The notes under the pieces: model-generated
Told to the model about the DNA's origin: nothing
The model's database searches: none
What the model saw: the letters and a program-made list of their open reading frames with translations, nothing else
In this document: piece by piece, positions 1 through 3,599 of the stretch
How the letters are laid out: every line of letters starts with the position of its first letter
How positions within the stretch are numbered: position 1 is the first letter of the stretch
Position numbers and translations under genes: made by a program
Source of the DNA: a virus
Taxonomy: Duplodnaviria > Heunggongvirae > Uroviricota > Caudoviricetes
Virus record (IMG/VR): IMGVR_UViG_2698536484_000040
DNA length: 3,599 nt
Strand: one strand, 5' to 3'

Positions 1-662
<662 letters not shown>

Positions 663-663
663 T

Positions 664-786
664 GGGAATAAGCAGGTTGAATGCGATTACATGTTATCTG
701 CATTAAGGCGCATGGAGTTGAGAGGGCACCTTAATGAAATATATGACGGTGTGATTGTTAATAAGAAAGAAGGAAACGCGGCATGA
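664..786 (+). pseudogene. Possible 3' remnant of a prophage gene truncated by the IS insertion (open frame from the IS boundary to TGA 784-786)
   Basis: The frame is open from immediately after the IS end (...NKQVECDYMLSALRRMELRGHLNEIYDGVIVNKKEGNAA*). Its stop overlaps the ATG of the next gene in an ATGA arrangement (ATG 783-785, TGA 784-786), the usual coupling geometry in phage operons. There is no recognisable domain, and it could be non-coding leader. Confidence 0.25.
718..745 (+). promoter_or_regulatory. Candidate sigma70-like promoter upstream of the 783 gene (TTGAGA, 16-bp spacer, TATATG)
   Basis: Hexamers read by eye: -35-like TTGAGA at 718-723 and -10-like TATATG at 740-745. The -10 is imperfect (G at position 6). 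Purely a sequence-pattern guess. Confidence 0.2.
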
Positions 787-1541
787 TCACTATTACCAAA
801 GGGCGACTGCTGACAATCAAGCAGTGGCGCGAAACATACGGACCGGGTAGCAACGTTGTACTGCCAGCAGAAGAAGCGGAAGAACTGGCACGAATTGCAC
901 TGGTATCGCTGGAAGCAGAGCCGATGGCAAAGATTATAGCTCATTACCCATTAGGAGTTGACGTAGGCAAACAAAAGTTCGTACAGGCCATTGGAGAGCT
1001 TCCTGACTTTGGCGGATATCTATTTGCCGCCCCGCCAGCGCCGGTAGTGCCGGAAGAAGCAACTCCGGAAAACGTAGAAATGCTCTCTGGCTATGTTTCC
1101 ACGTACAAATTAACCGATAGCGAGCGCGATATTGCTGCCGAAATATGGAACGCCTGCCGCACCGCCATGCTTCAGTCCGGAAACTTTCGGGAAAGCAAGA
1201 ATTCGTCAACCAATAATTTTCGGGAAATCCCGGAAGCGTCAACCAGCTCTCCGGTAACTCCGGCTCTTCTGCCTGGTGGTTTCACCATTGAGGAGGCGAA
1301 GGAATTACATGAAGACCTGGTACGCAGCCACATAAGCAAGGCCTTAAGTGGCGAAAAGATGAAAAAGAAAGATCGCGATGCTGATTTGCGCTGGATTCAT
1401 GGCGTTATAGTTCAGGCAGCGTGGTTTGTAAAAGCATCACTGGAGCAGAATGCACTATCGGGCAACTCTCCGGTAACTCCGGATGGTTGGATAAGCTGTA
1501 GTGAGCGAATGCCGGACGACAGGCAGGAGGTGAATCAATGA
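783..1541 (+). CDS. Uncharacterised prophage early-region protein (252 aa) with a Pro/Ser/Thr-rich repetitive linker; its C-terminus stops right after a GWISCSERMPDD motif that resembles the start of a DUF551-type domain
   Basis: ATG at 783 is preceded by a GAAGGA Shine-Dalgarno (769-774, 8-nt spacing). The ORF is long and co-directional with xis-int. Internal in-frame direct repeats are present (see repeat features). Stop TGA 1539-1541 overlaps the ATG of the next ORF. The DUF551 resemblance is from memory of the WI...LP(E/D) motif, not a search. Confidence 0.75.
   Translation: MITITKGRLLTIKQWRETYGPGSNVVLPAEEAEELARIALVSLEAEPMAKIIAHYPLGVDVGKQKFVQAIGELPDFGGYLFAAPPAPVVPEEATPENVEMLSGYVSTYKLTDSERDIAAEIWNACRTAMLQSGNFRESKNSSTNNFREIPEASTSSPVTPALLPGGFTIEEAKELHEDLVRSHISKALSGEKMKKKDRDADLRWIHGVIVQAAWFVKASLEQNALSGNSPVTPDGWISCSERMPDDRQEVNQ
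1247..1263 (+). repeat. Copy 1 of a perfect 17-bp direct repeat ctctccggtaactccgg inside the 783-1541 CDS (encodes SSPVTP)
   Basis: Exact string match with 1466-1482, read directly from the sequence. The copies are 219 bp apart (73 codons), in the same frame. Confidence 0.95.
1466..1482 (+). repeat. Copy 2 of the perfect 17-bp direct repeat ctctccggtaactccgg (encodes NSPVTP)
   Basis: Exact string match with 1247-1263. The shorter core aactccgg also occurs at 1061-1068 (encoding ATPE). Confidence 0.95.
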
Positions 1542-1621
1542 GCTGGCCTGATGCAATCGTAACTCTGGGGGTGGTATTCGCAGCAGCGTTTGTTGTGTTC
1601 TCGATTTGTCGATGGGGATAA
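1538..1621 (+). CDS. Micro-ORF encoding a 27-aa hydrophobic peptide MSWPDAIVTLGVVFAAAFVVFSICRWG (predicted single transmembrane helix); not in the supplied ORF track
   Basis: AGGAGG Shine-Dalgarno at 1524-1529, 8 nt before ATG 1538. ATGA overlap with the stop of the upstream gene. Stop TAA 1619-1621 lies 4 nt before the next ATG (1626), so the ORF exactly fills the gap in an otherwise gap-free operon. The hydrophobic core AIVTLGVVFAAAFVVFSI is flanked by a polar N-terminus and a basic C-terminus. Confidence 0.45.
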   Translation: MSWPDAIVTLGVVFAAAFVVFSICRWG

Positions 1622-2312: not shown

Positions 2313-3599
2313 ATGAGTAACGCATCATACCCGACAGGCGTTGAAAACCATGGAGGATCACTCCGTATATGGTTTCACTATAATGGCAAACGTGTCAGAG
2401 AAAACCTCGGTGTTCCTGACACAGCCAAAAACCGGAAGATCGCTGGTGAACTTCGCACTTCCGTTTGTTTTGCAATCAGAATGGGGAGTTTCGACTACGC
2501 CGCGCAGTTCCCTAATTCCCCTAACCTGAAACACTTTGGTCTGGGAAAAAGAGAGATAACCGTTAAGGCACTTTCGGAAAAATGGTTGGACCTTAAGAAA
2601 ATTGAGATTTGTGCGAATGCACTTAATCGTTACCAGTCAGTAATTAAAAACATGTTGCCTATGTTGGGTGAGAAAAAACTGGTTTCATCCATAACAAAAG
2701 AGGATTTACTTTTCGCAAGGAGAGATTTGTTGACCGGTTACCAAAAGCTTTCTAATGGAAAGATTTCTTCCATAAAAGGGCGCTCAGTGGTCACAGTAAA
2801 CTACTATATGACAACCATAGCTGGAATGTTTCAATTTGCAACAGATAATGGTTATACCTCAGGAAACCCATTTAACGGTCTGGCACCCTTAAAAAAGTCC
2901 AAGGTAAAACCAGATCCTCTCACCCGTGACGAATTTATTCGTTTTATTGAAGCTTGCCGTCATCAACAAACAAAAAACCTGTGGATTCTCGCTGTATACA
3001 CGGGTATTCGTCACGGGGAGCTGGTATCGCTGGCATGGGAAGATATAGATCTTAAAGCAAGGACTATAACCATCCGTAGGAATTATACAAAACTTGGCGA
3101 ATTCACTCCACCAAAAACCGATGCTGGCACCGGAAGGACAATTCATCTGGTTCAACCAGCTATTGATGCTCTTAAAAGTCAGGCGGAAATGACCATGCTT
3201 GGAAAGCAACATTCTGTAGAGGTAAAGCAGAGGGAATATGGGAGAAGTACTGTGCATAAATGCACTTTTGTTTTTAGTCCTCAGGTAATAAAACAGCGGC
3301 AGTTTTCCGGACCGCACTATAAGGTTGACTCCATCAGGGAGTCATGGACAAGTATCTTAAAACGCGCAGGTCTGAGACACAGAAAATCGTACCAATCCAG
3401 GCATACTTATGCATGCTGGTCACTTGCCGCTGGAGCTAATCCTAGTTTTATCGCAAGCCAGATGGGCCACACAAACGCACAAATGGTATTCAATGTTTAC
3501 GGAGCATGGATGAAAGACAACAATCACGAACAGATAGAACTCCTTAACAAAAGACTATCTGAAAGTGTCCCATGTATGCCCCATAAGAAAGCTGGGTAA
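2313..3599 (+). CDS. int: Phage integrase, tyrosine site-specific recombinase (428 aa, complete), with an N-terminal arm-type DNA-binding region
   Basis: GGAGG Shine-Dalgarno at 2304-2308. Catalytic-domain motifs are present: LAVYTGIRHGELVSLAWEDIDL (Arg box), PPKTDAGTGRTIHL, SRHTYACWSLAAGANPSFIASQMGH (His/Arg box) and NVYGAWM (candidate catalytic Tyr). The N-terminus GSLRIWFHYNGKRVRENLG resembles the arm-binding domain of Rac-type (IntR-like) integrases as I recall them. Stop TAA at 3597-3599 coincides with the window end. Confidence 0.93.
   Translation: MSNASYPTGVENHGGSLRIWFHYNGKRVRENLGVPDTAKNRKIAGELRTSVCFAIRMGSFDYAAQFPNSPNLKHFGLGKREITVKALSEKWLDLKKIEICANALNRYQSVIKNMLPMLGEKKLVSSITKEDLLFARRDLLTGYQKLSNGKISSIKGRSVVTVNYYMTTIAGMFQFATDNGYTSGNPFNGLAPLKKSKVKPDPLTRDEFIRFIEACRHQQTKNLWILAVYTGIRHGELVSLAWEDIDLKARTITIRRNYTKLGEFTPPKTDAGTGRTIHLVQPAIDALKSQAEMTMLGKQHSVEVKQREYGRSTVHKCTFVFSPQVIKQRQFSGPHYKVDSIRESWTSILKRAGLRHRKSYQSRHTYACWSLAAGANPSFIASQMGHTNAQMVFNVYGAWMKDNNHEQIELLNKRLSESVPCMPHKKAG

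Follow-up and report, generated by a model that had tools for sequence, protein, structure and literature searches.

This locus raises the question of whether a short repeated sequence inside a phage accessory gene marks the joint at which a part of the encoded protein is gained or lost. The locus is a 3,599-nt stretch of DNA (hereafter, the window) from a virus of the Caudoviricetes (IMG/VR record IMGVR_UViG_2698536484_000040), and the gene in question occupies positions 783..1541 on the + strand and encodes a 252-residue protein. A preliminary description made from the letters alone had pointed to in-frame 17-bp direct repeats that encode SPVTP both times and bracket 219 bp, and had proposed that the 73 codons concerned form an insertable or deletable module in a mosaic gene that stops soon after the start of a DUF551-type domain. 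We consider it likely that the gene is indeed a string of modules in which this cassette has been gained or lost at the linker, and that the core of its terminal DUF551 domain was lost in a separate 159-bp deletion.

The repeat itself was found exactly as described. The 17-mer CTCTCCGGTAACTCCGG is present at 1247..1263 and 1466..1482 (+ strand), both copies are read in phase with the 783-1541 open reading frame (ORF), and they are spaced by 219 bp, or 73 codons. Copy 1 encodes residues S156-P160 and forms the left boundary of the cassette; copy 2 encodes residues S229-P233 and bounds the cassette on its right as well as the DUF551 part on its left. The expected count of CTCTCCGGTAACTCCGG was 0.01, and two copies were obtained in none of 200 dinucleotide shuffles (0/200). 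Neither further copies with up to three mismatches nor inverted copies were found in the window. The homology of the two copies extends leftward to 20 nt (1244-1263 versus 1463-1482), with identity at 19 positions (95%). The other repeats mentioned in the preliminary description, a shorter core of the linker and an imperfect 33-bp tandem, were also recovered, neither of them being statistically notable: the 10-mer relative GCAACTCCGG at 1059-1068 is a match of unremarkable length, and the two low-complexity linker units NFRESKNSSTN and NFREIPEASTS (1182..1245, + strand; units at 1182-1212 and 1215-1245) share 77% identity and fall below detection by Tandem Repeats Finder at a score of 30. Relatives have either one or two NFRE units (a single one in L016).

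Alleles with and without the segment between the linker copies were found among related loci. The joint expected from recombination between the two copies, in which the left flank of copy 1 is followed by the 17-mer and the right flank of copy 2 (CCAG-17mer-GATRGTTGG), was present in 21 IMG/VR contigs, and all 21 encode ...NFR(K/E)I(P/S)E(A/T)STSSPVTP-DGWISCS..., that is, the same gene minus 73 codons. The left joint leading into the module was present in 86 IMG/VR contigs. In the closest pair of a short and a long form (L023 and L067, respectively), compared from the start codon to beyond the downstream genes, the only gap was one of 219 bp at the repeat, with 5 mismatches in about 1,118 aligned bp; the protein lengths differ by the same 73 residues (243 in the long form P0029 versus 170 in the short form). 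The cassette also comes and goes in a second, unrelated N-terminal background: gp05 of phage YYZ-2008 has the arrangement MINR...GNSPVTP-DUF551 without the cassette, and P0133 has the same N-terminus with the cassette added (MINR...NSPVTP-cassette-PPVTP-DUF551). In P0143, the cassette is followed directly by the C-terminal tail, and all four combinations of cassette presence and DUF551 state were found. Among 5,426 complete E. coli genomes, searched with E-value limits that only contiguous matches could pass, the cassette joint was found in about 307 and the direct linker-to-DUF551 joint in about 501. Together, these comparisons show that alleles of this gene differ by whole modules with breakpoints at the linker (L023/L067; YYZ-2008 gp05/P0133), and the predicted length variants of exactly 219 bp were thus borne out, in near-identical flanks as well as in a second N-terminal background.

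The linker is not specific to this pair of neighbors. Among the retrieved loci, the 17-mer is preceded by more than 20 distinct upstream peptide contexts and followed by at least five module types, including DUF551 (beginning DGW or DSW) and the LPGGF module (ALLPGG or ARLPGG); the GNSPVTP-DGW junction by itself stands behind more than 20 different upstream contexts. Since the IMG/VR loci were retrieved by exact DNA patterns, the conservation of the linker is partly a product of the retrieval, which does not apply to the diversity around it. One short DNA sequence hence lies at the joints of otherwise unrelated flanks, and SPVTP is a generic adaptor between modules. Because units consisting of a module plus its linker stand next to each other, the direct repeat arises without any special mechanism. 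Other joints with alternative blocks among the relatives are ARIALASLEAEP, AAPPAPVVPEE and CR(A/T)AMLQSGNFRE. In addition, the short forms mix the variants that separate copy 1 from copy 2 (CAG/CAA, TCT/TAT and GATGG/GATAG), which suggests that more than one exchange took place within or beside the linker.

The allele counts bear on the direction of the change. A reading to which we give somewhat less than an even chance is that the short form is ancestral and that the long form arose by in-frame insertion of a captured module-plus-linker unit. It would accord with the direct joint being commoner than the cassette joint (501 versus 307 genomes) and standing behind many more contexts, and donor copies exist, both as a stand-alone module of 71-117 residues and within unrelated proteins. 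Conversely, a deletion between direct repeats requires a simpler mechanism than an insertion that has to be precise and in frame, and, as gain and loss would yield identical sequences, the data do not decide between them.

The unique part of the cassette (1264..1465, + strand) encodes an LPGGF...SHISKALSGEKM...AAWFVKASLE module of about 60 residues followed by QNALSGN. The core of the cassette forms a small family of its own, with 84 clusters at 50% identity among 1.84 billion representatives, and occurs as a stand-alone protein of 71-117 residues and within varied proteins, such as the 585-residue multi-module protein P0163. The 73-residue cassette by itself matched no family in Pfam, PHROG or NCBIfam scans. 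An AlphaFold2 model of an intact relative (P0005) was generated from a 47-sequence alignment. The mean predicted local distance difference test (pLDDT) value was 41, and the two helices predicted in the cassette (169-188 and 195-224) had values of about 40, so that this part of the model is of low confidence; a PDB sequence search with P0005 yielded nothing (best E = 0.7). Three singletons of 375-395 residues (P0001, P0022 and P0023) have internal duplications that include the cassette region and whose junctions lie away from the 17-mer; these could be real tandem duplications or assembly artefacts.

What follows copy 2 of the linker is a remnant. Residues 235-250 match positions 1-16 of the 68 positions in the DUF551 profile (PF04448) with E = 7e-5 and 24 bits versus a cut-off of 22, so that the protein passes the gathering threshold of the family while lacking the complete domain (about positions 1-68, including the HWMPLPEPP end). 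From this match and the alignment to intact alleles, the DUF551 N-terminus DGWISCSERMPDD was placed at 1482..1520 (+ strand). Close relatives have more: P0005 (302 residues, 99% identical) matches positions 1-68 with E = 8.5e-21, P0004 matches positions 1-65, and relatives that are 98-99% identical over the first ~245 residues are 302-313 residues long and carry complete DUF551 domains with at least five different cores. The gene is therefore a mosaic that stops soon after the start of a domain complete in its close relatives, and the full DUF551 continuation after WISCSERMP anticipated by the preliminary description does exist in homologues. In the P0005 model, the DUF551 part has five predicted strands and is the only part to reach pLDDT values of 54-79. 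The window allele lacks this predicted beta-strand core and cannot form a DUF551 domain.

Comparison with an intact allele suggested how the core was lost. The protein of the window ends ...SERMPDD|RQEVNQ*, where the bar marks the junction, and the DNA at the junction, TGCCGGACGA (1510..1519, + strand), appears to be the one copy left of a direct repeat whose two copies flank 159 bp in L224, a metagenome contig that encodes P0004 (305 residues, ending HWMPLPDDRQEVNQ). In BLAST alignments, window positions 1510-1519 align to both 813-822 and 972-981 of L224. The 8-mer CCGGACGA occurs at L224 815-822 and 974-981, 159 bp apart, and once in the window at 1512-1519. In L224, one copy falls where the core begins (SERIPDD) and the other where it ends (LPDD), and the window lacks exactly these 159 bp, or 53 codons. 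Upstream, L224 and the window share 99.8% identity; on the 3' side, they agree completely at the junction and shortly beyond it, and identity is 96% when the whole 3' match is counted. A putative parent with direct repeats at both ends is thus matched by a product with one copy. These comparisons indicate that the window allele lost its DUF551 core by an in-frame 159-bp deletion, for which loss between the CCGGACGA repeats would be the simplest origin, with L224 taken as the likely parental type.

The weak point of this derivation is the rarity of the L224 type: further alleles of this type (HWMPLPDDRQEV) numbered 0 in IMG/VR, and the best match in complete E. coli genomes reached 95.9%. The core could instead have been lost by a microhomology join (CAG/GCAG, from ...DDxQ to ...PPQ-EV) from an unsampled parent, with L224 (ending HWMPLPDDRQEVNQ) being a later recombinant of a truncated and an intact allele. 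The fact that L224 is one contig, without counterparts in IMG/VR and complete genomes, would fit this alternative, as would the ends of nearly all intact alleles, which read PEPPQEV rather than PDDRQEV, and the existence of DUF551 starts with MPDDGQ, MPDDKQ and MPDDAQ. However, conversion of a truncated allele into L224 would need a crossover within about 5 bp (CCGGA), whereas the window allele would follow from L224 by simple loss between CCGGACGA copies 159 bp apart, and the 3' flanks are identical at the junction. We thus regard the microhomology join as unlikely and favor deletion between the repeats.

The truncated form is not peculiar to the window. Its joint was found in 125 of the 5,426 complete E. 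coli genomes and in the deposited phage PhiR5_1. Of the fetched loci, 40 stretches, nearly all from IMG/VR contigs, have the joint with the same DNA; the truncated protein belongs to a cluster of 401 members. The window allele is common and already in databases. At least six N-terminal architectures precede the truncated tail, one of them with a genuine Ea22 N-terminus (P0125); the truncated form is an established allele that has since been recombined into several backgrounds. We also considered whether the truncation or the cassette difference might reflect an error of sequencing or assembly, or a recent pseudogene restricted to one strain. Repeats can collapse in short-read assemblies, and the oddly duplicated singletons P0001, P0022 and P0023 are possibly artefacts; a repeat of 17 bp is, however, far too short for read collapse, and the recurrence of the identical truncated junction in the complete genomes, the fetched stretches, the protein cluster and PhiR5_1 effectively refutes this reading, whose probability we put close to nil.

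Other forms of DUF551 loss were noticed in passing. In P0140, P0143 and P0120, the cassette is fused to the tail (...FVKASLEA|LPEPPQEV), a second and different loss in which the tail is again kept. In L002 (E. coli PS1Thumoskin9), the annotation splits a 91%-identical copy at 3121-3987 into a pseudogene "missing C-terminus" and a 45-residue "DUF551 domain-containing protein". The family therefore decays also by frameshift or stop, besides in-frame deletion.

Intact alleles vary most in the part that the window has lost. At least 15 core types follow the DGWISCSERMP start in the retrieved loci, and nearly all of them end HWMPLPEPPQEV(N/K/R)Q. Across loci L005-L223, the DUF551 core is a hypervariable segment of about 42 residues between strongly conserved ends, the conservation of the left end being partly a consequence of the retrieval. 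This pattern looks like cassette exchange or diversifying selection. A bolder version of the idea holds that the DUF551 end is a natural site of cassette exchange, in which cores between two anchors conserved in their DNA, the linker GNSPVTPDGWISCSERMP on the left and the tail HWMPLPEPPQEV on the right, would be swapped between co-resident prophages by short-homology recombination under diversifying selection, with core-less alleles as null or escape variants. We consider this rather doubtful. If it were true, the cores would be exchangeable specificity determinants, for example in phage-host or phage-phage conflict, and the core-less alleles would keep a 27-residue membrane micro-ORF expressed through the ribosome-binding site in the tail.

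The conserved ends around a hypervariable core of at least 15 types, together with the plus and minus alleles of the cassette, could also be taken as signs of programmed, high-frequency switching of modules, for example by phase variation, a shufflon or a diversity-generating retroelement. However, the window encodes no reverse transcriptase or invertase and contains no template repeat, its recombinases being the integrase with its excisionase and the IS911 transposase only, and the linker has no inverted copies there. The variants are fixed between genomes, with no within-genome heterogeneity observed. Neither dedicated variation machinery nor simple-sequence tracts, and no notable tandem arrays, were found in the 3.6-kb window and the flanks in relatives. 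Programmed switching is thus very improbable.

Next, we considered why the tail was kept. The tail RQEVNQ with the stop codon (1521..1541, + strand) is the native C-terminus, as the tail and the ATGA overlap with the next ORF are conserved behind other DUF551 cores: ...PPQEV(N/K/R)Q and the overlap follow at least 15 different ones. The QEV codons, CAG GAG GTG, spell AGGAGGT at 1525-1531, six bases upstream of the ATG at 1538, and this is probably the Shine-Dalgarno sequence of the next ORF. That ORF (1538..1621, + strand) encodes a hydrophobic peptide of 27 residues, MSWPDAIVTLGVVFAAAFVVFSICRWG, and overlaps the upstream stop codon through ATGA. It is open at 27-28 codons in 10 protein variants from 62 loci, with a conserved hydrophobic pattern, and is without annotation in the RefSeq locus L001. 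The micro-ORF is probably a real gene for a small membrane protein and probably translationally coupled to the 252-residue gene. Serving as the ribosome-binding site of the next gene probably constrains the tail, and such a constraint would account for its persistence behind unrelated cores as well as for the survival of deletions that leave it in place. The preliminary description had supposed that the original C-terminal domain was replaced by the micro-ORF junction; this has to be given up, since the native tail, stop codon and ATGA overlap of intact alleles are all retained, so that the junction is original and replaced nothing. Dydecka et al. described an unexplained conserved C-terminal tripeptide, (K/R)-G-E, in Ea22 proteins (PMC7093339). 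It is speculation by analogy that K-G-E, which can be spelled as AAAGGAGAA, might serve as a Shine-Dalgarno sequence for the next gene by the same logic as QEV spelled as CAGGAGGTG.

These observations can be combined into one model. The 252-residue gene is a member of the mosaic Ea22/DUF551 accessory genes found between exo and xis in lambdoid prophages. Their proteins consist of small modules in a row, with short Pro-rich linkers between them whose DNA is conserved. One such linker, (G)N/S-SPVTP, is encoded by the 17-mer and closes each module unit, and the unit between the two copies is a 73-codon module-plus-linker cassette that is present or absent as a whole. Its gain or loss probably occurred by recombination at the linker, which could have been short-homology deletion or slippage within one gene or exchange between paralogues in co-resident prophages, and the cassette then probably spread by ordinary homologous recombination in the flanks. 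In a separate event, the window allele lost its hypervariable terminal DUF551 core through the 159-bp in-frame deletion, most simply between 8-10-bp direct repeats (CCGGACGA) like those of L224. This deletion spared the 3' tail with its Shine-Dalgarno sequence and the overlapping start of the 27-residue ORF, and expression of the downstream gene should therefore be preserved. Phage Rad52-like recombinases make mosaics on short, diverged homologies (PMC3945230). Recombination partners are at hand, since E. coli genomes often have several such genes, with up to nine matching places per genome, and exo/RecT-type recombination genes are encoded by the prophage relatives. The repeats, the alleles with and without exactly 219 bp, the intact relatives, the 159-bp gap with its flanking repeat and the spread of the truncated tail over several N-terminal backgrounds are observed, whereas the enzymes involved, gain or loss of the cassette, the allele that gave rise to the deletion and any function are inferred.

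Several points weigh against the model. The minimal efficient pairing segments are 31-34 bp for RecA and 23-27 bp for Red-beta (PMC3945230), and the repeats of 17-20 bp are shorter than both and hence poor substrates for classical homologous recombination. The active hotspot suggested in the preliminary description is hypothetical, and an event within one gene is more likely to have been slippage or RecA-independent short-homology deletion. Otherwise, a founding event may have happened only rarely, with both states now moving by recombination in the longer flanks. The reciprocal duplication joint (the left flank of copy 2, the 17-mer and ALLPGG in the same gene) was seen in 0 of 86 contigs, the sole match to GN-SPVTP-ARLPGG being the second N-terminal background rather than a duplication. 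The direction of the cassette event, gain or loss, is not readable from the alleles, and the L224-type allele, a single metagenome contig, may be a secondary recombinant and not the parent. The selection of the IMG/VR sets by exact DNA patterns builds in part of the linker conservation, and no function is known for the 252-residue protein, the cassette or DUF551.

Some of the same observations would suit a simpler reading, in which the SPVTP copies are a mere inter-domain linker with no role in recombination, the flanks alone move the cassette, and the original illegitimate join fell in the linker by chance. The shortness of the repeat relative to the RecA and Red-beta minima (PMC3945230), the missing duplication joint among the 86 contigs and the near-identity of alleles over at least 50 bp in the flanks on both sides are all consistent with it. 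Nevertheless, the gap between the long and short forms lies exactly at the repeat with one copy kept, an identical boundary is used in an unrelated N-terminal background, and the short forms combine copy-1 and copy-2 variants in different ways, suggesting multiple exchanges within or next to the linker. A purely passive linker is therefore a minor contender in our view, and we retain the model of a module string with gain or loss of the cassette at the linker.

From the ORF list and a Pfam scan, the window covers the integrase end of a lambdoid prophage of E. coli, and the 252-residue gene is a non-essential gene of a lambda-like prophage of this species, a mosaic accessory gene of the exo-xis region according to the ORF list and to how L001 and PhiR5_1 are annotated. 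In databases it goes under "phage protein", "DUF551 domain-containing protein" or "Ea22", and its PHROG assignments (PHROG 60 and others) are all of unknown function. Downstream of the micro-ORF on the + strand lie a DUF4222 gene (1626-1868), a 44-residue ORF (1872-2006), an excisionase gene of the DUF1233 family (2025-2279) and a tyrosine integrase gene (2313-3599), assigned from Pfam and from the RefSeq annotation of the 99.9%-identical locus L001. Without IS911, the region is 99.9% identical to prophages of E. coli O55:H7 RM12579 and others and to PhiR5_1, in which the gene order is orf61, TraR-like, Ea22, hypothetical, the 252-residue gene, DUF4222, xis and int. The neighborhood is alike in L001, YYZ-2008 and PhiR5_1, which places the gene in the exo-xis early-left region of a lambdoid phage.

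Outside the mosaic gene, the 3' part of an IS911 element occupies 1..662 (+ strand), with the end of the orfB transposase at 654 and that of the right inverted repeat at 662. It contains the Pfam domains rve, rve_3 and rve_2 and has a 100% match in RefSeq to "IS3-like element IS911 family transposase"; prophage homology begins directly after it, at 663. The insertion lies about 120 bp upstream of the 252-residue gene, between this gene and the upstream Ea22-like genes of relatives. Since the IS911/prophage junction was found in none of the complete RefSeq E. coli genomes, the insertion is specific to the source strain. This IS911 copy may separate the 252-residue gene from leftward early transcription.

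Together, these results describe a known phenomenon, domain-level intragenic mosaicism in the lambdoid Ea22/DUF551 accessory genes of the exo-xis region, and the gene reveals no new mechanism or function. The linker-bounded cassette and the spared ribosome-binding tail do not appear to be described in the literature searched, where searching for the linker motif brought up no relevant match. The value of the locus is as a clean and quantifiable case of in-frame domain shuffling in a phage accessory gene, with the joint marked by a repeated 17-bp linker, both cassette states frequent among sequenced E. coli, and, separately, the in-frame loss of a domain core with the translation signals of the next gene spared. 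It would also lend itself readily to measurements of how phage recombinases act on short homologies. For annotation, it follows that "DUF551 domain-containing protein" is the wrong label for the 252-residue allele, which has a stub only, and that a conserved 27-residue ORF is being missed.

The closest known relatives are the ea22 genes of lambda and Stx phages, which are themselves mosaic and occur as Ea22 variants V1-V3 (PMC10834534, PMC7093339). The 252-residue gene resembles them in its exo-xis neighborhood beside xis and int and in its block-wise mosaic structure, variant V2 of Ea22 having a portable DUF551 domain at its C-terminus. In P0125, a true Ea22 N-terminus and coiled coil are followed by exactly the cassette and truncated tail of the window, and the depositors of PhiR5_1 labeled the 252-residue gene Ea22. 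However, the window protein has no Pfam match besides DUF551 and nothing of Ead/Ea22: for the Ead/Ea22-like family (IPR025153, named in PMC10834534), Pfam scans at E<=1 returned DUF551 only and NCBIfam nothing relevant. Neither PMC10834534 nor PMC7093339 describes the SPVTP repeat, the 73-codon polymorphism or the in-frame deletion of the DUF551 core. Some Ea22 proteins favor lysogeny (PMC7093339), a function examined for other Ea22 proteins only. The window also differs from the relaxed recombination by Rad52-like recombinases in that its 17-20 bp are shorter than the measured pairing minima (PMC3945230). Compared with DUF551 proteins such as YfdS of prophage CPS-53, the window protein shares the start of the family profile, DGWISCSERMP, above the gathering score, and its close relatives carry the complete domain, whereas it keeps 16 of 68 profile positions and lacks the predicted beta-strand core.

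Deletions between short direct repeats are reportedly classic in lacI, as credited to Albertini et al. in 1982. The 159-bp loss at an 8-10-bp repeat, and possibly that of the 219-bp cassette at a 17-20-bp repeat, are alike in that one copy is kept and the segment is lost, with the difference that the events in the window are deduced from allele comparison. Juhala et al. in 2000 and, for HK620, Clark et al. in 2001 reportedly noted conserved boundary or linker sequences where modules of lambdoid phage genomes meet. The SPVTP linker resembles these boundary sequences as a short conserved DNA between unrelated flanks that coincides with mosaic joints, whereas the joints in the window are intragenic and in frame, and operate at the level of domains rather than between genes.

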